A DNA stretch of 64,000 nucleotides from positions 256,001 through 320,000 of the forward strand of contig CBDCCZ010000003.1 of NCBI GenBank assembly GCA_965215005.1, read 5' to 3'. Position 1 is the first letter of the stretch; each line of letters begins with the position of its first letter. Source of the DNA: Kofleriaceae bacterium (GTDB lineage: Bacteria; Myxococcota_A; Polyangia; Haliangiales; Haliangiaceae). The notes beneath the pieces were generated by a model, which was given only the letters and a program-made list of their open reading frames with translations, searched no databases and had not been told where the DNA came from. Of this stretch, positions 19,119 through 40,506 are shown piece by piece. The position numbers were made by a program, and so were the translations under genes.

Positions 19119-22100
19119 CTACATGTTGCGGCGGTACTGCCCGCCCACCTCGTAAAGAGCGGCGGATATCTGGCCGAGCGTACAACTCTTCACCGTCTCC
19201 ATTAGAGTCGTAAAGATGTTGCCGTGCGTGAGCGCGGTCTCGCGCAGCGCCGCCAACGCCGCCGGAGCGCGTTCGGCATTGCGCCGCTGAAACGCCTCAA
19301 TGGAGGCGATGGCGTACTCTTTCTCCTCTTTGGTGGCACGAATGACCTCGCCCGGCAGAATGGTCGGAGAGCCTTTGGCATCGAGAAACGTGTTGACCCC
19401 CACGACCGGCAGTTTCCCCGAGTGCTTGAGCGACTCGTAGTGCAACGACTCTTCTTGGATCTTGGTGCGCTGATACATGCGCTCCATCGCGCCGAGCACG
19501 CCCCCGCGCTCCGAGATGCGGCGAAACTCGGAAAGCACCGCTTCTTCGACCAGGTCGGTCATCTCCTCGATGATGAACGAGCCCTGGAGTGGGTTCTCGT
19601 TCTTACTCTGGCCGAGCTCCTTGTTGATGATCAATTGGATCGCCAACGCCCGCCGCACGCTTTCCTCGGTGGGGGTCGTGATCGCTTCATCGTAGGCGTT
19701 GGTGTGTAGAGAGTTGCAGTTGTCGTAAAGTGCGTAAAGAGCTTGCAGAGTGGTTCGGATATCGTTGAAGGCAATCTCCTGCGCGTGGAGCGAACGACCC
19801 GAAGTCTGAATATGATACTTGAGTTTCTGCGACCGCGCGTTTCCTCCATACTTGCGCGCCATCGCCTTGGCCCATATGCGCCGCGCTACCCGGCCAATCA
19901 CTGAATACTCGGGATCCAATCCATTGGAGAAGAAGAAAGACAGATTGGGCGCGAATGCATCAATATGCATTCCGCGCGCGAGATAATACTCGACGTAGGT
20001 AAATCCATTGGCCAGCGTAAAGGCGAGCTGACTGATTGGATTGGCGCCCGCTTCTGCAATGTGATAGCCGGAGATGGAGACGGAGTAGAAATTTCTCACC
20101 TCGTTCTCCGTGAAGTACTGCTGAATGTCGCCCATCATGCGTAGTGCGAACTCGGTCGAGAAGATGCATGTATTCTGGGCTTGATCCTCTTTGAGGATGT
20201 CTGCTTGCACCGTGCCGCGCACCGACGACATGACCTCTGCCTTGATCTTCTGATAGACCTCCGCCGGAAGAACCTGATCGCCGCTCACGCCGAGGAGCAT
20301 CAAGCCAAGGCCGTCGTTGCCCGCGGGAATCTGCCCCTGGTAGCGCGGGCGCGGCAACTCGAGCTGACGGTAAATCGTCTCGATTCGCGCCTCAACCTCG
20401 TTTTCTAGCCCCTGGGCGCGGATGTACTTCTCGCAGCCCTGATCGATGGCCGCATCCATGAAGAACGCCAGCACCATCGGCGCCGGACCATTGATGGTCA
20501 TAGACACGCTCGTCGACGGATGAGCGAGGTCGAAGCCCGAGTAGAGCTTCTTGGCATCATCGACCGTTGCGACGCTAACGCCAGAGTTGCCGACCTTGCC
20601 GTAGATGTCCGGCCGATAATCGGGATCCTCACCATACAGCGTGACGGAGTCGAAGGCGGTCGAGAGACGTTTGGCAGCCAACCCGCTCGACACGTAGTGA
20701 AACCGCTTGTTCGTGCGTTCAGGGCCACCCTCTCCCGCGAACATCCGCGCCGGGTCCTCGCCTTGGCGCTTGAGCGGAAACACGCCCGCAGCGTACGGAA
20801 ACGCCCCTGGAACGTTTTCCGTGAGCAGCCAGTGGAGAATGTCACCCCAGTCTTGATACTTGGGCAACGCGATCTTGGGAATGCGCAGGTGGGAGAGCGA
20901 CTCGCTAAACAGCTCTTGCTCAATGACCTTGTCGCGCACCTGAAATCGATACTTGTCCGCTCGATAGCGCTCGACGACCGCCGGCCAGGTTTCCAGAAGC
21001 TGCTTACAGCCGGCGTCAAGACGGCGCTCGAGCTCCTGATACAGCGTCTCGAGCTCGCCGAGATACGCCGGAGCACTCTCAGTGGTTTGCACCGCGTGAA
21101 CCAGCGCGGCATCGCTATCGACGAGCTCGACCTTGGGCTTGCCCACGCGTGCCCGGAGCAGCTCGATGGTGCCCCGCAGTCGGTACAGCTCGCGGGCGGT
21201 GCGACACTGCGCATCGACCCAGTCGCGATAGCGGTCGCTGGTTTCCACGATCTCCGCCAGGTAGCGGACGCGCTCGGGAGGAATGATGTAGCGCTTCTCG
21301 CTCCTGGCTCCGCTCGGCTCGAACGTCGAGTGCAGCGGAGCACCGGTGGTTTCAGCCACTTTGTCGATGAGCCGCCGATAGAGGACATTGGTTCCCGGAT
21401 CACTAAACTGCGAAGCAATGGTGCCGTACACCGGCAGCTCGTCGTCTTCAGCGTGCCAGAGTCCGCGATTGCGCTTGTATTGCTTCTTGACGTCGCGCAG
21501 CGCATCGAGCGAGCCGCGCTTATCGAACTTGTTGATGGCAATCAAGTCGGCAAAATCGAGCATGTCGATCTTTTCGAGCTGGGTGGCGGCGCCATACTCA
21601 GACGTCATCACATACAATGAGACATCCGAGTGCTCGACGATTTCGGTATCCGACTGGCCGATTCCGGACGTCTCTACAATGATCAGATCGAATCCAGCCG
21701 CTTTGCAGATGTCGATTGACTCTTGTACGTAACGACTGAGCGCTAAGTTGGACTGCCTCGTCGCCAGCGAGCGCATGTAAACCCGCGGCGAGGCGATCGC
21801 GTTCATGCGAATGCGGTCCCCCAACAAGGCGCCGCCGGTGCGTCGCTTCGACGGATCGACGGAAATTACCGCAATCGTCTTATCTGTGAAATCGAGCAAG
21901 AAACGCCGGACCAGCTCATCGACCAGCGAAGACTTACCAGCGCCGCCGGTGCCCGTGATACCGAGAATCGGCACCGCGCGCTCCGCAATCCGCTGCCGCA
22001 GCGGCGCCCGCACCGTCTCGAATGCCTCGGGATGATTCTCGGCCAGCGTGATGAGCCGCGCGATCGCCTGCGGATTGTCCACCCGCAGCGCCTCCACGAG

Positions 22101-22565
22101 CGGCTCCGCCGGTGGCTCGGTAGCGGGGAAGTCGCACTGCTTCAGGAGGTCATCGATCATCCCCTGAAGTCCCAACGCGCGACCGTCATCCGGCGAGTAG
22201 ATGCGCGCGACGCCGGCGGCGTGAAGCTCGTCGATCTCGCTCGGCAAGATGGTGCCACCGCCCCCGCCGAAGACGCGAATGTTGGCGCCGCGCTCGGCGA
22301 GCAGCTCGACCATGTACTTGAAGTATTCGACGTGACCTCCTTGATAGGAAGTGATCGCGATGCCTTGCGCGTCCTCTTGGATGGCACAATCGACAATCTC
22401 GGCGACCGAGCGATTGTGGCCCAAGTGAATCACCTCGGCCCCGGATGCTTGGAGGATCCGCCGCATGATGTTGATCGCCGCGTCGTGACCATCGAAAAGC
22501 GACGCGGCGGTGACGATGCGAACGTGGTGCTCAGGACGATACGGGTCGGTTTTCGTTGCTTGCAT
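19119..22565 (-). CDS. icmF: Fused isobutyryl-CoA mutase / MeaB-like GTPase
   Basis: B12-binding FDGHDAAIN, GTPase GTGGAGKSS and NKFD, mutase domain RMFAGEG and [15 protein letters not shown] before ATG 22565. Confidence 0.95.
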
Positions 22566-22688
22566 CGCGGGACCTCCGCCGCATGCATAGCGCATGCTCA
22601 CCAAGCGCCACAAGGGCAGCTCGCCCGCGCGGGCTCACACCAATCGGGGGGTGCGGGCCCCGCGGCCTGCATCGCACGAGCGAAGGCG

Positions 22689-26059: not shown

Positions 26060-29000
26060 TCAAAAGCCGGGGACGATGACCCGAAGCATTCGGTCCGGCG
26101 CCGCCACACCTTCGACCGCAAGCCGCCGCAGCGCCGCGGCGCGCAGCTCCTCGCCCTCGTCGCCACCGACGATGCCGGCAAGCCGCAGCCGCGCCAGGTC
26201 TGCCGCCAGGTGCATCTCTCGGCTTTCCGCGAGCTCCATCGCTTGGCGGAGCCTGTCGCACGCGCGCGACGCATCGCCTTCCTGATGCGCCAGAGCCGCC
26301 TCGAGTAGCCCCCGCCAGACCCGAGCGTAGCTCTCTTTCTCGCGCGCCAGAAGCCGGATGCTCTTGGTCACCTCGCGGCGCATCGTGCTCGGCTCGTGCC
26401 CCGCTGCGGCCGCCGCCAGCCGCAGCCGCGCTTGCAGCCAATGATGCAGCGTGCGCGGCATTTTCACCCGCATCAAGAGTGAGCTTCCCATCGCTTTAGA
26501 ACCCGTAGAAAGCGCTTCCAACGCACCAACGGCGAGATCTTCGTAAAGCGCGAGCTCGCCGCGCGCCTCGAGCTCGAACCAGTGCTGCACGTGAAAGTGT
26601 CCCTCGAGCGGCAGCCAGTCGGCTTGCGCAAGGTTGAGGTGCGCGGCGGCGGCCTCATCGCGCGCGAGCCAAAGCTCACTGCAGTAGCGGCGAATGGTGG
26701 TCTCGGTATAGCGATCGCCGCGCTGCGCCGCGTCGCGCACCATCTGCTCGAAAGTGGCTCCGAGCTCGCGCATCGACCCCATCCGACGGAGCGCGAACAA
26801 CCGAAACATACGCACCTGACCGATCTCCCAAGGAGCGCCGCGGGTCTCGCTGCTGAGCAGCGACAAGCTGCGATCGAACGTCCGCACCGCCTCGCCGAAG
26901 CTACCTTCGAAATAATGCAGCGCGCCCCAACATGCATCGGTCCACGCGCGGATGTACGGATCATGGTTCTCATCTGACAGTCGCTCGGCGACGCGGGCAA
27001 TGCGCCGAGCTCGACGAAATTGCCCCTGGGCCGCCATGTGGCCAAACTCCAGCGCCAACGCCCGGGCGACCCGCTTGACCTCCCCGGTGCGAAGCGCCCA
27101 CAACAGATCACGGGTGTTGAAGTCCGAGCCGCGAATCGAGTCGACCATCGATAGCCCTTGGCTAATCGACTTGAGCACGTCGACGCGCATGAGCTCCTCG
27201 CGCGCCACTTGGCTCTCGAGACGAGGCTTGAATTTCAGCCCTCGCAGGCGCAGCTTGAGGCGATTCCACAACAGAGACGTGAAGGCGCGGCCAGCGGTCT
27301 TTGGTAAGTAGACGCCCATCTCCACCAACAGCGAGTCCATGGTGTCGAGACCGCGTTCGATGTGGCCACTGATCATCAGCTGCTCGGCCGCCAGTCGCCG
27401 GCACTCCATGCGCGTGGTCGGCTCGGCGCCCTCGGCCGCCGCCAAGAAACAATCGGCGGCCTCAGGTCCGCGCGCCGCGTTGAGCAGCGCATCGCCGAGC
27501 GCCAGCTGCAACGCCCGTAGCGCCGGCCCCTGCGGCTCACTCAATCGCAGCGCGGTGCGATACAGCTGAGCGGCACGATCGAACGCCAAGGCTCTCGCAG
27601 CATGCGCTGCGGCGCGTTCCGCGTAATCCGCCGCTTTCAATCGCTGCCCCGCGGCCTCGAGGTGACGCACTAGCAACTCCGGGCGCTGATCCTCGACCTC
27701 GAGCGCAGCCGCTAGCATTTCGTGCCGCGCGCAGCGCTGCCGGTCATCAAGATGCGATATCACCGCTTCGAGCACGCGGTCGTGATATGGCTCGACCGCA
27801 TTGCCACTGCCGTAGGCGCGCATTCGCACCAGGTGCGCCACCCGCAACAGCGAGAGTCCCTTCTGAAAGTCTTGCGGCGGCAACTTGGTGGCGCGCCGCA
27901 GGACCTCTTGCGACAGCGGCGCGCCAGCCACAGAAATCGACTCGAGGATCAGCTTTGCGCTGGGTGGCAAGCCCTGCACGCGACTCCAGATCGCCTCATC
28001 GAGCCGCACCGGCGCCGTGCCATCTCCCGTCGATGCCACTCGATGTACGAGCTCTGCGATGAACAATGGATGGCCTTCCGCTTCCCGCGCGATCGCGGCG
28101 GCATCGGAATCACTGCTGATACCGCTGCGCAAAAGCAGGGCCCGCGCCAGCTCCAGCGCGCTCTGCGGTACCAGTGCACGAACCTCGAGCTCGCGCACCG
28201 GTGGCGGCAGCACGCGCGCGAGTCGACCGCGTACCTGCTCGAGCGTATGTCCTTCGTCGATGCGCGCGGTGAGCACCAGAAGCAGGCGCGGTGGATCGGG
28301 AGGTCGCAATAGCTCGCGTAGCAGCGCCAGGCTATCGGCATCGGCCCATTGCACATCGTCGATGACGATCATCAGCAAAGAGACTGTGCCGAGGTTGCTC
28401 ATGAGCCGGCGCACCGCTGCGAAGATCCTGCCGCGAAGCTCCTGACTGCCACCGACCTCGAGTCCCGTTCGCGCCCGCGCAATGGCTTCAACCCGTCCGA
28501 GCACCGGAAACATCCGCCGCGCCAGCGCGATCTCGGCAGGCATCACCGCGGCTACGCGGCTATCGTCGAGCGTTCGCAGGTGCTTTGAAAGAGCATCTAT
28601 CACCCCATCGAACGCTTTATAGGGCAAGGCCTCCCGCTCATAACAGCGGCCACTGAGTACCACCACGGCCGGATCGCTAGTGGCGGCTTCGTCGGCAAAC
28701 TTGCGCACCAGCGCCGACTTACCCAAACCAGAAGCACCATGCACCAGCATCGCTGCGCCGCCGCCCCCACGTACTTCGGCCAGCGCTTCGGCCAGCGCCT
28801 TCGCTTCGTGGGTTCTGCCGATGAACGGGGCGTTCATCGACAGGTGTGGAGCTGCCAGAGCTGCTCGTGCCTCGGCTTCGGTGGCTCCCAGACGCTGCAT
28901 GATCGAGCGCTCGGGCGGCCGCTCGCGCGGATCGTACTTGAGCAGCTCGCAACACAGCGACTCGAGATCGTCCGGCAGGTTCGGCACGTGGGAACGCGGC

Positions 29001-29692
29001 GGCGCCGGCACGTGCTGTTGCTTGTCCATCAAGATCTCCAGCACGCTGCCGGTGAACGGCAGGCGGCCCGTGAGTGCCTGATAGAGCAATACGCCCGCTC
29101 CGTACCAATCGACCTCGGGCCCCACCGCCTTGGAAGCCGCTTGCTCTGGCGCCATGTATTCGGCGGTGCCCACCGCGCTACCGTCCGCCGATTGGCGCTC
29201 GAGATCGACCTCGGTGCTGAGACCGAAGTCGAGCAGCACCACACGACCGCTGCTGCTCACCAAGATATTCGACGGCTTGATATCGCGATGAACGGTGCCG
29301 GCGCGATGCAGGGCCGAGAGGCCGAGCGCGAGCTGGCGCAGCGCATCGCGCAGCCGACGCTCATCGAGAACCTGATCAGGACGGACGTAGGAGAGAAAAT
29401 CCACGCCTTCCACCAGCTCCATGGTGAAGAACCAGGCGTGGCCGCTTTGAATCAGCTCGCCCAAGCTCACGAGGTTGGCGTGCTCGAGATCCTGAAGCGT
29501 GCGAAATTCTTTCTTGAGGCGATAGAGCGACTGAGCGTCTACGTTGTGAAGCGTCTTTAAGGCGACGCGCGCCTCCTGGGCGCGGTCGAATACCTCGTAA
29601 ACGACGCCCATCCCGCCAGCGCCGAGCCGACGAATGACCTCGAAGCGCTCCGTCCCTTGAAAGTCGAATGAGGCGTGTGGATTGCCAAGCAC
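26060..29692 (-). CDS. Ser/Thr kinase fused to AAA ATPase and helical repeat region
   Basis: LGAGGMG, HRDIKPSN, DFG, YMAPE; Walker A GASGLGKS and Walker B IDDVQW. Confidence 0.93.
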   Translation of the reverse strand: MLGNPHASFDFQGTERFEVIRRLGAGGMGVVYEVFDRAQEARVALKTLHNVDAQSLYRLKKEFRTLQDLEHANLVSLGELIQSGHAWFFTMELVEGVDFLSYVRPDQVLDERRLRDALRQLALGLSALHRAGTVHRDIKPSNILVSSSGRVVLLDFGLSTEVDLERQSADGSAVGTAEYMAPEQAASKAVGPEVDWYGAGVLLYQALTGRLPFTGSVLEILMDKQQHVPAPPRSHVPNLPDDLESLCCELLKYDPRERPPERSIMQRLGATEAEARAALAAPHLSMNAPFIGRTHEAKALAEALAEVRGGGGAAMLVHGASGLGKSALVRKFADEAATSDPAVVVLSGRCYEREALPYKAFDGVIDALSKHLRTLDDSRVAAVMPAEIALARRMFPVLGRVEAIARARTGLEVGGSQELRGRIFAAVRRLMSNLGTVSLLMIVIDDVQWADADSLALLRELLRPPDPPRLLLVLTARIDEGHTLEQVRGRLARVLPPPVRELEVRALVPQSALELARALLLRSGISSDSDAAAIAREAEGHPLFIAELVHRVASTGDGTAPVRLDEAIWSRVQGLPPSAKLILESISVAGAPLSQEVLRRATKLPPQDFQKGLSLLRVAHLVRMRAYGSGNAVEPYHDRVLEAVISHLDDRQRCARHEMLAAALEVEDQRPELLVRHLEAAGQRLKAADYAERAAAHAARALAFDRAAQLYRTALRLSEPQGPALRALQLALGDALLNAARGPEAADCFLAAAEGAEPTTRMECRRLAAEQLMISGHIERGLDTMDSLLVEMGVYLPKTAGRAFTSLLWNRLKLRLRGLKFKPRLESQVAREELMRVDVLKSISQGLSMVDSIRGSDFNTRDLLWALRTGEVKRVARALALEFGHMAAQGQFRRARRIARVAERLSDENHDPYIRAWTDACWGALHYFEGSFGEAVRTFDRSLSLLSSETRGAPWEIGQVRMFRLFALRRMGSMRELGATFEQMVRDAAQRGDRYTETTIRRYCSELWLARDEAAAAHLNLAQADWLPLEGHFHVQHWFELEARGELALYEDLAVGALEALSTGSKAMGSSLLMRVKMPRTLHHWLQARLRLAAAAAGHEPSTMRREVTKSIRLLAREKESYARVWRGLLEAALAHQEGDASRACDRLRQAMELAESREMHLAADLARLRLAGIVGGDEGEELRAAALRRLAVEGVAAPDRMLRVIVPGF

Positions 29693-29818: not shown

Positions 29819-30031
29819 TCAAACCAACGGGTCTGCGGTGGGCAGCGTCCCCGCGGCCGTCTTCGCGCTGTACAGGTCGACCAGCTGTTCCTCGAGGCTA
29901 CGCACCATCGCGATGATGCGCTCGGCATCGGCCGTGCCTAGCACCCGAGCCAAGCGTTCTCGCTCGGCATAGAGACAGGTGAGCTGGGCCTCCATGTCAC
30001 CGCGATCTGCGGGCGGATTCTCGTGCGGCAT
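29819..30031 (-). CDS. Small helical protein with duplicated E.QL..LY motif (70 aa)
   Basis: MEAQLTCLYAER and LEEQLVDLYSAK internal repeats; divergent from the HTH-PYP gene. Confidence 0.7.
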   Translation of the reverse strand: MPHENPPADRGDMEAQLTCLYAERERLARVLGTADAERIIAMVRSLEEQLVDLYSAKTAAGTLPTADPLV

Positions 30032-30078
30032 CAACTGGCCAACGCTAGCACTAGTGCGCTACAAAGACGAGAGGCGAA

Positions 30079-30606
30079 ATGGACGATTTACTCACAACCC
30101 AGGAAGTGGCGAAGCTACTCGGCGTTGGCACCACCAGCATCAAGCGGTGGTCCGACGAAGGGAAGCTCCCGGCTTTCAAGACCGCCGGAGGACACCGCCG
30201 TTACCGCCGCGAGGACGTGGAAAAACTGCTACAGCACGCCACCGAGGACGAGGCCCTCCACGCGCGCCTGTCCGGGATGAGTCGCCGCGAAATCGACGCG
30301 TTAGCAGTGGGAGTCGTGCAGCTCGACGATGCCGGAATGGTGCTGCTCTACAACGCCGCAGAGGCGCGGTTTGCCGGTATTTCGGCCGAGGAAGCCGAGG
30401 GCAAGTGCTTCTTCACCGAAGTGGCACCTTGTACCAACAATCGGATTTTGATGGGGCGGTTTCGCGAAGGAATCCGGATCGGCCAACTCGACGCCCGGAT
30501 CGACTACACGTTTACCTATCGCATGCGGCCTACATTCGTCGCCTTGCACCTGTACCGAGATCCGCAGAGTCAGACCAACTGGCTGATCGTCGACCCGCGG
30601 CTCTAG
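30079..30606 (+). CDS. MerR/excisionase-type HTH fused to a photoactive yellow protein (PYP) domain
   Basis: N-terminal [13 protein letters not shown]...IKRW...TAGGHRRY; C-terminal YNAAE and FFTEVAPCT (PYP Y42/E46/C69 equivalents), [19 protein letters not shown]. Confidence 0.88.
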
Positions 30607-31077: not shown

Positions 31078-32412
31078 CTAGCGCGAATTCGCGCGCGGCC
31101 GCGGAATGGAATACTTCTCGAGCCGCCGCACGAGCATGCGACGGGTCATGCCGAGCATTTGCGCCGCGCGAGTCTGGTTGCCAGCACAATGATCGAGCGC
31201 GGCGACGATGCGCGTTTTCTCGCTGCCACCGATTGGTAGCCGCGCCTCCGCAGGCAGCGACACCGATGGCTCCTCGCCGCGCGCGGCGCCTGCGGTCAAG
31301 GGATCGAGGGCCACGTGATGGGCCTCGATGGGCCCGCCGCCGGAAAACGCGACTGCGCGCTCCATGGCATTGCGCAGCTCGCGAATGTTTCCCGGCCAGC
31401 TGTGGCTGCGAAGCAGCGCCATCGCAGTCGGCGTGATGGTCGGTGCCGGAACCCCGGCGCGATTGGCAGCACGTTCGGCGAGCGCGGTGGCGAGCGGCGC
31501 GAGGTCGCCGGGACGCTCACGCAGCGGCGGGATCACGATTGAGACGCCGTTGATGCGAAAGTAGAGGTCGCGGCGGAACCGGCCATCGCGCACGTCTGCC
31601 GGCAAATCGCGATTGGTAGCCGAAATGAACCGCACGTCGATGGGGATCGACGTGCGACCGCCGATGCGCATCACCCGACGCTCCTCGAGCACCCGCAACA
31701 GCTTCACTTGCAGCGACAGCGGCAGCTCGCCTATCTCATCCAGGAAAACCGTGCCGCCCGAGGCTGCTTCGAGTAGTCCGGCGCGGGTTTGCTGGGCACC
31801 GGTGAAGGCGCCGCGTTCGTGGCCAAACAGCTCGCTCTCGAGCAACGTCTCGACCAGCGCGCCGCAGTTGATGGACATGAAGGTGTGATCACGACGCGGA
31901 GACAGGGCATGGGCGCGACGCGCAAAGACGTCTTTGCCGGCACCACTCTCGCCGAGCAGTAGCAGGCTCAGCTCCGAAGGGGCTAGCCGCGCGACCATCT
32001 CGTCGACGCGCAACGTTCGCTCATCGACGATGATCGGTGCCTCGCTCGGCTGCTCGCGCCGATGATCGAGACGCGCGAGCAACCGCAAGCTCGCAGCGCC
32101 GATCAACAGCTCGTCGCCTTCGCGCACCACGTGCGGCGCCCGGGGCTCGAGCGCTTTGGCATCTGCCAACGGCGCGGTGACGGTGGCGTTGCCAAGCTCG
32201 CAGTCCGTTGCCGCCATCAGCGTTCCGTTGCGACTTCCGCAGTCGACGATCTGCAGCGGCTGCCCGAGAATGAGCTCGGCGTGCAGACGCGAGACGCTCG
32301 GATCCCCGAGCAGACGGATGTCACTTTGCGGCCCGCGACCGATACGCAAACGACCCTCGCTGGGCAAAGACACGTGCCAAGAACGACCTTGATGACGAAC
32401 AGCTAATAGCAT
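31078..32412 (-). CDS. FHA-domain sigma54-dependent transcriptional activator
   Basis: GR...VSRLHA...SRNGT FHA; GESGAGKD, GAFTGA, WPGNIREL and HTH. Confidence 0.93.
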   Translation of the reverse strand: MLLAVRHQGRSWHVSLPSEGRLRIGRGPQSDIRLLGDPSVSRLHAELILGQPLQIVDCGSRNGTLMAATDCELGNATVTAPLADAKALEPRAPHVVREGDELLIGAASLRLLARLDHRREQPSEAPIIVDERTLRVDEMVARLAPSELSLLLLGESGAGKDVFARRAHALSPRRDHTFMSINCGALVETLLESELFGHERGAFTGAQQTRAGLLEAASGGTVFLDEIGELPLSLQVKLLRVLEERRVMRIGGRTSIPIDVRFISATNRDLPADVRDGRFRRDLYFRINGVSIVIPPLRERPGDLAPLATALAERAANRAGVPAPTITPTAMALLRSHSWPGNIRELRNAMERAVAFSGGGPIEAHHVALDPLTAGAARGEEPSVSLPAEARLPIGGSEKTRIVAALDHCAGNQTRAAQMLGMTRRMLVRRLEKYSIPRPRANSR

Positions 32413-32500
32413 GAGGTTCCTCTCGTGCCCGACCTGCTCGACGCGTGCGCTCGAGCCCAAAATAGTGCCAGCGCGACAGTGATGAGCGGCAGGGCTGGAG

Positions 32501-39027: not shown

Positions 39028-40506
39028 TTAGTCGCGGTCGGTCTGGCGAAAGTCATGCACCTCGATGCCAAAGCGGCGACACCAACGACGGATCTGCACC
39101 GGCGCTTTTTCGAAGCTGCGCGCCACCGCAGAGACGTTGCCGTCGTGCTCCTCGAGCCGCGCGATGAGCACAGTCCGAAGCGCTCGCTCGGTTTCCGTCA
39201 TGCGTTTCCCAGCGTCTCGCGCGGACGCGCGCATGGTCGCAGGCAAGTGCTCGGAGCGCACCCGGCCAGTTTCTGCAAGCGCTAGCGCCGCGTGCAACGC
39301 CTGGTCGAGCTCGCGAATATTGAGCGGGTAGTCGTAGCTCATCACCAAGCGCGCCGCGGCGACCGAGAGCCGTGGCGTGACGCCCGCGCCGTGCCGACGC
39401 AAGCTAACGGCGGCGAGCTGGCCAAGGTCTTCGCGGCGGGCGCGCAGCGGCGGCAGCTCCAGCTGATGGCCCCGTAGCCGCGCGAACAAGTCGGGTCGAA
39501 ACAGCCCCTTCTCCATCTGCGCCGTGAGATCCGCGTGCGTCGCCGCGATCACCCGCGCATTGACCGGGACGCTTTCGAGCCCCCCCACCGGCCGCACCTC
39601 GCGCTCCTGGAGCACGCGCAGTAGCTTTACTTGCGCCGTAGCCGGCATCTCCGCAACCTCGTCGAGGAACAGCGTTCCGCCATCGGCGCTGCGCACCAGG
39701 CCCTCGCGATCTTCGGCAGCACCAGAGAACGCACCGCGGCGATAGCCAAACAGCTCGCTCTCGATGAGCGTGCCCGGCAACGCGCCGCAGTTGACCGCTA
39801 CGAAGCGACCCGCACGACCCGAGAGGGCGTGAATCGCCTTGGCCACGAGCTCCTTGCCGGTGCCCGTCTCGCCACTCACGAGCACCGCCAGATCGGTGCC
39901 GGCAATGCGCCGCAGTTGGGCGAACGCGGCGGCCAAGTCGGGATTGTAGGTCGACAGCGGCTGGCCCAGCGGCTCGTCGTCCCGCGCAAACGCGCCGAGC
40001 ACCGGTGCCACAGGCGGCGCCGGACAACCCGCGCGCGCGCCTCGAAAGACGAAGAAGACGCCGCCCGCTTCGATGAGCATGCCATCAGCAACCGCTGCCG
40101 TCGTCACCGAGGTTCCATCTACGAAGGTTCCGTTCTTCGACTGCAGGTCGCTGAGCAACCACTTCTCACCCAACGCTTGCAAGCGCAGGTGGTGCCGCGA
40201 CATGCGCTGATCGCAGACGTTCCACCGCAGTTGCGGGCCGCCCGCGCCACGACCGATGACCTCGATGCCGGGCGTGGACCCGCGGCCGATGATGAGCTCC
40301 TCGATACCGTCGAGCTCTAGCATCTCACCGCCGCGCAGCGGCCAATCGGCCTCTAGCGCCAAGACCAAACGCGGCGGCGTGAAGTCGGCAGCCGGCAGCT
40401 CGTCGTGCTCACTGAGCGACAGCGTCTGCGATGCATCGGAGCTCGCCGCCGATGCAAGCTGGTTTCCTGACCCTGTCGCGGCGTGTCGGTGTGCTGCCAC
40501 TGTCAT
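39028..40506 (-). CDS. FHA-domain sigma54-dependent transcriptional activator
   Basis: MSRHH...[28 protein letters not shown] and HTH. Confidence 0.92.

Follow-up and report, generated by a model that had tools for sequence, protein, structure and literature searches.

The stand-alone photoactive yellow protein (PYP) of Halorhodospira halophila, the type represented by the profile TIGR02373, has an N-terminal cap that detaches in the light-activated signalling state. In other bacterial light regulators, the sensor is joined to a DNA-binding domain. EL222 and the LOV-HTH regulators, of about 200 amino acids (aa), carry a PAS-fold blue-light sensor joined directly to a helix-turn-helix (HTH), and light releases a helix from the PAS sheet. 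The CarH/LitR-type repressors place a DNA-binding head on a B12 light-sensing module, and in myxobacteria, CarA and CarH work with a small acidic anti-repressor, CarS, which is SH3-like. In the chimeras GCN4-PYP and opto-DN-CREB, a DNA-binding element was placed on the PYP N-terminus, and the light-driven change in the cap reportedly controls DNA binding. The engineered CREB-PYP work is cited as ref 13 in PMC9664959, and natural multidomain PYPs, which exceed 200 aa by definition, carry PHY (Ppr, Ppd), HisKA/HATPase, GGDEF/EAL, V4R, MCP or REC domains (PMC12826048, section 6). A small acidic protein adjacent to Rc-PYP, PBP (142 aa, isoelectric point (pI) 3.9, helices and beta-sheet), is described as binding the photoproduct (bioRxiv 10.1101/2021.06.01.446672). 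Here, we analyse a 64,000-nucleotide stretch from a Kofleriaceae bacterium (assembly GCA_965215005.1, contig CBDCCZ010000003.1, positions 256,001 to 320,000 of the forward strand), referred to below as the window, in which a single gene joins an N-terminal HTH to a PYP domain and lies beside a small divergent gene. On balance, we favour the view that the fusion is a one-component blue-light transcription factor, a DNA binder switched by light through its PYP sensor.

The fusion shares with stand-alone PYP the fold and the N-terminal cap, as well as Tyr42, Glu46, Pro68, Cys69, Tyr94, Phe96 and Met100 (PYP numbering), at 36-41% identity and a root-mean-square deviation (rmsd) of 0.8-1.6 Å. It differs from stand-alone PYP in its N-terminal DNA-binding domain, its profile score below the cut-off, Ala and Ile in place of Thr50 and Arg52, and the lack of linked genes for the p-coumarate-CoA ligase pCL or the ammonia-lyase TAL. 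Like the CarH/LitR-type repressors, it sets a head of the same HTH subfamily on a putative light-sensing module, but this module is a PYP sensor of about 115 aa, in contrast to the B12 domain of about 210 aa in CarH, and the small partner of the fusion is a helical hairpin, unlike SH3-like CarS. EL222 differs from the fusion in its flavin chromophore, its LuxR-type HTH, and the N-terminal position of its sensor. In Ppr, Ppd, MCP-PYP, PYP-V4R and REC-PYP, as in the fusion, PYP is the input of a larger signalling protein, but the fusion is set apart from the multidomain PYPs described in that section of PMC12826048 by its DNA-binding output, its C-terminal PYP and a length under the 200-aa threshold. 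Compared with the bZIP-PYP chimeras, it is natural and conserved, with a winged HTH and a partner protein. That partner and PBP, compared by description only, are both acidic and PYP-adjacent, and the partner is a hairpin with a core of ~50 aa.

The domain boundaries of the fusion were determined from the open reading frame (ORF), from Pfam and NCBIfam profile searches, and from an AlphaFold model (Table 1). HTH_17 was matched with an E value of 2.5e-15 (56.9 bits, cut-off 27), the same region passed the gathering scores of MerR (36.8 against 28.2) and MerR_1 (37.1 against 21.6), and PAS was matched at aa 69-155 (34.7, cut-off 22.6). The NCBIfam model TIGR02373 (photo_yellow) matched with an E value of 2.5e-32, over profile positions 8-121 of 124. 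MerR proteins proper have a coiled-coil helix for dimerisation, C-terminal to the HTH, and an effector domain; no MerR effector-domain model of Pfam or NCBIfam matched the fusion, and a single helix (aa 44-58) lies between the HTH and the PYP cap. When the fusion was compared with solved chains, the best sequence matches were the PYP 1otd (E 5.3e-24) and the PYP domain of Ppr, 1mzu (E 6.8e-24), and in an ungapped alignment, residue 57 of the fusion corresponds to PYP residue 8 (offset 49). In this register, Tyr91, Glu95, Cys118 and Met149 take the positions of Tyr42, Glu46, Cys69 and Met100, and Thr50 and Arg52 of H. halophila PYP are replaced by Ala99 and Ile101. Since solved T50V and R52Q PYPs (1f98, 2d02) are among the structure matches of the fusion, and both positions vary within the fusion family (the Thr50 position is Ser in 56, Ala in 31, Thr in 8 and Phe in 1 of 96 clusters, and the Arg52 position is Arg in 22 of 96), these replacements are not disqualifying. 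The original prediction, made from the sequence alone, had described a 175-aa protein with a MerR/excisionase-like HTH joined directly to a PAS domain of PYP signature; ORF, Pfam and NCBIfam agree on this, and the alignment to solved PYP exactly reproduced the YNAAE motif, the VAPC-type Cys, and the replacement of Thr50 by Ala and of Arg52 by Ile that it had named.

Table 1. Coordinates of the HTH-PYP module in the window, with the basis of each assignment.
Feature	Position	Strand	Basis or remark
HTH-PYP fusion gene, 175 aa plus stop	30079..30606	+	ORF listing; ATG start, GAGAGG a few bases 5'
HTH_17/MerR-like winged helix-turn-helix, aa 4-52	30088..30234	+	Pfam, NCBIfam, model
Connector: helix 44-58, hinge, PYP N-terminal cap helices 60-66 and 69-73	30208..30297	+	AlphaFold model
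PYP domain (N-cap and PAS core), aa 58-171	30250..30591	+	TIGR02373, PDB sequence matches, Foldseek
YNAAE: Tyr91 (TAC, 30349-30351) and Glu95 (GAG, 30361-30363), PYP Tyr42 and Glu46	30349..30363	+	Alignment to solved PYP
Cys118 codon (TGT), counterpart of PYP Cys69, chromophore-binding position	30430..30432	+	Alignment
Shared divergent control region, 44 bp	30035..30078	.	Holds perfect 10-bp palindrome GCACTAGTGC at 30048-30057
Small partner gene, 71 aa from TTG, 70 aa from ATG at 30031	29819..30034	-	ORF listing, tblastn/blastp
Helical-hairpin core of the small protein, aa 10-59 of the ATG-started form	about 29855-30004	-

The predicted structure of the fusion is consistent with this assignment. 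The AlphaFold model, built from a 96-sequence alignment, has a mean pLDDT of 93.5 and a pTM of 0.71, with lower confidence only at residues 51-60 (pLDDT 65), and its HTH elements are strands 4-6 and 40-43 and helices 7-14 and 18-26. In a Foldseek comparison with the PDB, the top 37 among the matches listed were PYP or PYP-derived chains, including 2phy, 1mzu and the apo form 9o8v, with rmsd values of 0.8-1.8 Å over 100-118 columns and 32-41% identity. The TM score normalised to the target was 0.86-0.95 for the 36 PYP chains; the FAST chain at rank 37, which is PYP-derived, had 0.78. We also placed the domain in a quick maximum-likelihood IQ-TREE tree of 173 PYP domains (119 columns, SH-aLRT support), in which many forks are not resolved. 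All 96 fused PYP domains fall into one group of 100 rows (SH-aLRT 88), the four 'stand-alone' rows of this group start within the linker and are probably truncated gene calls, and the enclosing group of 123 rows contains three canonical PYPs that exceed the TIGR02373 cut-off (173-198 bits). Thus, with PYPs as the best matches, a model that superposes on solved PYPs, and a tree group shared with canonical PYPs, the PAS domain lies within the PYP family and not outside it.

To describe the breadth of the family, we searched a collection of 5.8 billion clustered proteins, which yielded 490 matches, the first 96 of which, the window protein included, are full fusions. These clusters (163-247 aa, 41-82% identity, both domains covered) were seen solely in metagenome-assembled genomes (MAGs) of Myxococcota type. 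Tyr42, Glu46, Pro68, Cys69 and Tyr94 are invariant in all 96, as are W24, G37, G38, R40 and R41 of the HTH wing, while Ala116 and Phe96 (PYP numbering for the latter) are each kept in 95 and Met100 in 86. The linker between HTH and PYP spans 16-86 aa, and the cap motif LPxMSxxE[IL]DAL is kept. Because Tyr, Glu and Cys are retained in every cluster, the fusion is not a chance match. The family is tight, since at 50% clustering (1.84 billion representatives) the two-domain form is reduced to 2 full-length representatives and 1 fragment. A pattern-seeded scan of species-representative genomes found 21 other loci with the full fusion, all in MAGs, the closest of which (69% identity) is labelled uncultured Haliangium sp., and the fusion is present in 1 of 60 relatives of the window's genome. 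Among phage records, 0 of 228 HTH matches cover at least 80% of the fusion and only the HTH part is matched, and the 55 plasmid records that match the PYP part contain no fusion, the single record with 83% coverage being annotated as a histidine kinase. We regard it as virtually certain that the gene and its family are real.

Several related arrangements were observed in these searches. At locus L043 (7926-9423), and likewise at L118, two tandem HTH-PYP paralogs are followed by the small partner gene on the same strand. The head of one PYP fusion, P0096 (207 aa), is assigned by its scores to the classical MerR/CarH type (NF052513, 44.8 bits) rather than to the BldC/excisionase type, so either this head has diverged or a second fusion event took place. 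P0318 (1174 aa) contains a tandem of four PYP domains, all of which carry Cys at the Cys69 position, and P0321 and P0322 consist of 7-8 tandem HTH_17-like domains. The window's own genome carries a second PYP-like gene (G000:C23:40687-40959; locus L010, 1435-2538, plus strand), whose 367-aa product consists of an N-terminal PYP-like PAS domain (TIGR02373, 63.6 bits), HisKA and HATPase_c, and has Phe at the Tyr42 position, the conserved Glu46, and a VAPC motif with its Cys.

The relatives of the DNA-binding head were examined in 77 loci (L013-L030, L052-L110) fetched by HTH or PAS similarity, which mostly encode proteins of about 260-340 aa. An HTH of the fusion's type without a fused PYP was found in 72 of them, at 45-70% identity to the fusion HTH across the fetched Myxococcota and Planctomycetota loci. 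In 56 of these 72, a tail of 205-245 aa contains Wx9EH followed by DxHxxG, which we take to be the signature motifs of CarH-family adenosylcobalamin photoreceptors, and when five proteins were analysed with Pfam, all five had HTH_17/MerR and B12-binding_2, and three also had B12-binding. Judged by sequence, the nearest relatives of the fusion HTH are the heads of CarH-type B12 regulators, and the fusion can therefore be described as a CarH-type head with PYP in place of the B12 module. CarH had been cited beforehand as a comparison for the locus, and the relationship turns out to be closer than proposed. The fusion is not itself a member of the CarH family; B12-binding_2 and B12-binding are both absent, the match to TransRegCarH reaches 16.6 bits where 400 are required, and only the head is common.

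Both kinds of sensor also occur near each other in unfused form. In an Acidobacteriota MAG (L052, 7049-8354), a stand-alone PYP gene is divergent from a CarH-like gene of HTH-B12 type with a head of the same subfamily, and this split arrangement is a possible unfused precursor. PYP genes adjoin 'MerR_1:B12-binding' or MerR genes in Massilia and Acidithiobacillus (PMC9664959, supplement file 4). The window's own genome has B12-binding ORFs, including one of 316 aa (G000:C42:168931-172352) that lies 2.4 kb from a phytoene synthase gene and may be a CarH-like regulator of carotenoid genes, and the organism probably has both B12 and PYP sensor kinds.

We propose the following mechanism for the fusion. 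The PYP domain is likely to be photoactive, in which case p-coumaric acid would form a thioester with Cys118 and hydrogen bonds with Tyr91 and Glu95, and the N-terminal HTH would bind DNA. The last helix of the HTH (44-58) is predicted to run through a short hinge into the PYP cap helices. Because this helix continues into the cap, the part that detaches in PYP, through a junction of which the engineered bZIP-PYP chimeras also make use, light would be expected to affect the HTH; photoisomerisation would re-orient or release it, or alter the oligomeric state, and DNA binding would change. The shared promoter region of the two divergent genes is a candidate target, and the switch could operate in either direction, as a dark repressor released by light (as in CarH) or as a light-activated binder (as in EL222). 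The acidic hairpin protein would co-evolve with the fusion and would most likely contact the PYP domain, as a co-regulator, adaptor or anti-repressor.

The small gene recurs with the fusion. By tblastn and blastp, 20 of the 21 other loci have it beside HTH-PYP (E 1e-17 to 8e-9), and the single locus without it is a contig of 2.8 kb. Among the 21 arrangements that include the window, 17 are divergent, 3 are tandem with the small gene downstream, and 1 is convergent, and neighbourhood clustering of the 21 fusion loci detected no recurring gene besides the small partner. In 401 evenly drawn Myxococcota genomes, a sample that overlaps the genomes of the 21-locus scan and is not independent of it, 14 matched the profile of the small protein, and all 12 strong matches adjoin a full-length HTH-PYP gene. 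When a hidden Markov model (HMM) of the small protein was run over 110 loci, no match was found beside HTH-only (CarH-like) loci, and all matches were in HTH-PYP loci. By eye, the longest contig of 27 of the 95 other HTH-PYP clusters is as long as that of a small-protein cluster. The two-gene module with a divergent small gene that had been predicted is thus borne out by the conservation of the partner. We consider it possible, at somewhat less than even strength, that the small protein is also the physical partner of the PYP fusion.

The small protein is acidic (pI 4.6 in the window, and pI 4.1-5.4 in 21 of 21 members), and its predicted structure consists of two helices (10-31 and 36-59) with a core pLDDT of 98. 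It was not assigned to a Pfam family, the best E value being 0.0065, reached in 2 of 21 members, and it had no NCBIfam match. Its structure had no Foldseek match in the PDB at E<=10, VIA-align against 48,161 chains gave a best Z of 4.7, to generic helices only, and the best ESM Atlas score, 0.80, was to unnamed clusters.

Relatives of the small protein comprise at least 200 clusters in the protein collection, and a search of longer proteins gave 77 relatives (155-1290 aa, up to 805 bits). In 52 of these, 3-14 tandem copies of the motif are followed by a C-terminal PYP-like domain, none having an HTH, and the remaining 25 are repeat-only. The fused proteins (P0241-P0299, 343-1290 aa) come in part from MAGs labelled Bacteroidota or Longibacter, and the long motif-repeat proteins resemble the long 'hypothetical' PYP homologs of Longibacter and Longimonas, which in the supplement of PMC9664959 have accessions adjacent to those of true PYPs. 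The motif also occurs as a separate protein near PYP genes. In Capsulimonas corticalis, a duplicated motif (BDI31641) and a PYP homolog (BDI31640) have consecutive accessions, and genome G190 has a multi-repeat form some 500 bp away from a stand-alone PYP. In four proteins of 160-175 aa (P0105, P0107, P0109 and P0113), a half-motif precedes a PYP domain with intact Tyr, Glu and Cys. The neighbourhoods and fusions speak for a functional link of the motif with the PYP fold, while binding itself is putative. We raise, more tentatively than the pairing at the window locus, the idea that the hairpin, with its ~50-aa core, is a previously unrecognised PYP-binding module found across phyla. In Myxococcota, it accompanies HTH-PYP as a separate protein; in Armatimonadota and another myxobacterial lineage, it is found, duplicated or in multiple repeats, beside stand-alone PYP homologs; and in organisms of Rhodothermales or Bacteroidota type, arrays of 3-14 copies are fused to PYP-like domains.

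A number of results weigh against a light-switched transcription factor, and chromophore supply is the main weakness of the photoreceptor interpretation. No PF00221 ammonia-lyase, and hence no TAL, was found in the window's genome (6.2 Mb, 62 contigs, 92.8% complete), although a PF00221 gene may be missing from the incomplete assembly, and the best match of this genome to TIGR02372, the PYP-type p-coumarate-CoA ligase, is 50.9 bits against a cut-off of 334.7. A PF00221 gene is present in all 21 other fusion genomes, with a second lyase in three, and the top matches, at about 600-670 bits, are probably histidine ammonia-lyase. The pCL cut-off was reached in none of these 21 genomes; 17 have no pCL match at E<=1e-20, 4 have a ligase at 124-140 bits, and only G064 and G081 have a ligase about 2 kb away from the second lyase. 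The 21 fusion neighbourhoods contain neither a TAL nor a pCL gene. According to published surveys, at least 10% of pyp genes are adjacent to TAL and at least 30% to pCL (PMC9664959, section 7), or 5% of predicted pyp operons contain TAL and 32% pCL, with p-coumarate uptake suggested (PMC12826048, section 8), and where the two surveys address absent supply genes, both suggest p-coumarate uptake or unlinked genes. Since TAL and pCL are missing from the vicinity of most pyp genes or operons, the absence of supply genes weakens the case without excluding it. The profile score is a further adverse point. The original prediction had called for matches to HTH_17/MerR and PYP profiles, and the former pass their cut-offs, whereas the TIGR02373 score of the fusion, 111.6 bits, falls below the curated equivalog cut-off of 143.05. 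Among 24 stand-alone relatives, 21 are likewise under this cut-off (80-123 bits) and 3 are over it, and many accepted PYP homologs carry the label 'photo_yellow (< cutoff)' in the supplement of PMC9664959. With respect to DNA binding, HTH_17 is also present in excisionases and in BldC-type architectural proteins, a sigma-70 and terminator scan of the control region returned 0 sites, a repeat scan found no inverted repeat in 29960-30110, and no alignment was obtained between the intergenic regions of the 17 divergent loci, so that these searches define no operator. The palindrome GCACTAGTGC has 1 occurrence in the 6.2-Mb genome (5 for its reversed control) and therefore defines no regulon; by eye, the closest ortholog, L031, retains part of the palindrome core, which is a lead only. 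Finally, 50 of the 52 PYP-like domains fused to the hairpin motif lack the Tyr/Glu/Cys triad (LAS in 18, VGS in 14, AAG in 7, and others), with P0241 alone keeping all three residues and P0290 keeping the Cys only; as 50 of the 52 are without Cys69, these fusions tie the motif to the PYP fold, and not necessarily to a photoactive PYP.

Some of these observations would also be accounted for if the fusion were a transcription factor in which the PYP-like domain, instead of being a photoreceptor, responds to a small molecule (free hydroxycinnamates from plant litter, for example) or to redox state, perhaps via Cys118. The missing lyase and ligase, the 17 genomes without a recognisable pCL, the low TIGR02373 score and the replaced Thr50 and Arg52 all fit such a sensor, and altered-residue PYP homologs are discussed as possible redox sensors in PMC9664959. 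We nevertheless judge it improbable, given that Tyr42, Glu46, Pro68, Cys69 and Tyr94, the signature of a covalent chromophore pocket, are kept in 96 of 96 clusters, that most pyp genes have no TAL nearby in any case (PMC9664959, section 7; PMC12826048, section 8), and that the HTH subfamily is otherwise joined to B12 light sensors. The head could instead be architectural, like excisionase or BldC, or the module part of a mobile element, with PYP modulating recombination or nucleoid binding. The HTH does pass the excisionase model TIGR01764 (47.9 bits, cut-off 28.8), scores 61.6 bits with the BldC subfamily model NF033787, and matches the solved BldC chains 6ama and 6amk (E about 1e-8); moreover, the HTH part alone matches 228 phage records, and the neighbourhoods of the module are unrelated between genomes. 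Yet the BldC model's cut-off of 77 is not reached, CarH-type regulators are the nearest HTH kin, no integrase or recombinase lies beside the module in the window, only the small partner recurs in the 21 loci, and the fused form is in no phage or plasmid record, so that we consider this explanation very improbable. Assignment to BldC, a subfamily of stand-alone HTH proteins of about 70 aa, was rejected on its score and on the presence of a second domain, and assignment to the excisionases (recombination directionality factors) was rejected because no integrase was found in the window flanks, none recurs in the 21 loci, and no phage or plasmid fusion was found.

The favoured reading, a light-regulated transcription factor, could also hold with the small gene being a regulated target or an unrelated conserved neighbour, and not a physical partner. 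In 17 of 21 arrangements, the two genes diverge from a short control region that they share, as is classic for a regulator and its target, and the loss of Cys in 50 of the 52 fused forms points in the same direction. This is countered by the covalent fusion of the motif to PYP-fold domains in 52 of 77 longer relatives, by the half-motif that precedes intact PYP in P0105, P0107, P0109 and P0113, by the neighbours of stand-alone PYP homologs in two other lineages, and by the tandem or convergent order in 4 of 21 arrangements; we think a non-partner role unlikely, but well short of negligible. An artefact might be suspected in a genome assembled in 62 contigs, be it a pseudogene, an ORF that arose by chance, or an HTH gene and a pyp gene wrongly joined in assembly, but it is already refuted by the intact-frame fusion in 21 other species-level genomes and 95 other clusters. 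In addition, the differences between the window genes and their closest ortholog are in excess at the third codon position (38/26/89 by codon position in the fusion, and 16/13/27 in the small gene), and the structural model is confident across both domains, leaving this explanation with practically no likelihood.

The genes that flank the module are signalling genes typical of myxobacteria, which are not conserved beside it elsewhere. One flank encodes a 1210-aa Ser/Thr kinase with an AAA_16/STAND region (26060-29692, minus strand), and on the other side lie an FHA-sigma54 activator (31078-32460, minus strand) and, 7 kb further, a second one (39028-40506, minus strand). The window also encodes a 1164-aa protein of IcmF-like architecture, in which B12-binding, MeaB GTPase and methylmalonyl-CoA mutase domains are fused (19119-22613, minus strand).

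In the full-text literature searched, excluding the older surveys (Kumauchi 2008, Meyer 2012), we found no paper on a natural PYP-HTH protein, and several of the searches gave, as listed, only papers of a general, crystallographic or optogenetics kind. In the part of the 2022 survey of 789 RefSeq PYP homologs that was covered, HTH or MerR occurs in none of the homologs themselves, and its 3 'HTH' and 12 'MerR' entries are all neighbour genes (PMC9664959). HTH, DNA binding, coiled coils and repeats are not mentioned, by term searches, in the main text of the December 2025 survey, but its supplement file 1 contains one row 'HTH_17 PAS' (MBX2811747.1), and its sequence list has two entries named 'helix-turn-helix domain-containing' (PMC12826048). 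A 2022 review of light-regulated bacterial gene expression names PYP, in the portion covered, solely in its reference list (PMC9614035). The statement that no characterised example was known therefore stands for this literature, since both surveys, as far as covered, leave the architecture undiscussed apart from one supplement row. The family was probably overlooked for technical reasons, as it is found only in uncultured MAGs, which RefSeq surveys miss, and falls under the 200-aa threshold for multidomain PYPs.

HTH-PYP is thus a conserved, uncharacterised architecture, and a variant both of the PYP photoreceptors and of the one-component regulators of CarH and EL222 type. PYP is among the photoreceptors studied in most detail. 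Signal output is still described as a gap in the PYP field (PMC12826048, abstract; also in PMC9664959 and bioRxiv 10.1101/2021.06.01.446672). If the proposed function is confirmed, a PYP on a DNA-binding head would make this output measurable in vitro, as DNA binding in the dark and in the light, and a conserved candidate partner for PYP signalling is available. If the partner role is true as well, the HTH-PYP pair would be a complete minimal blue-light gene switch, made up of sensor, DNA-binding head and co-factor, and the hairpin motif would belong to the PYP signalling partners that are still listed as unknown in the field. At 175 aa, the fusion would be among the smallest one-component light-regulated transcription factors, and of interest for optogenetics, where PYP-DNA-binding chimeras have so far been engineered. 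The combination of one HTH head with two unrelated light sensors, B12 and p-coumarate, would be a clear case of modular exchange among bacterial photoreceptors.

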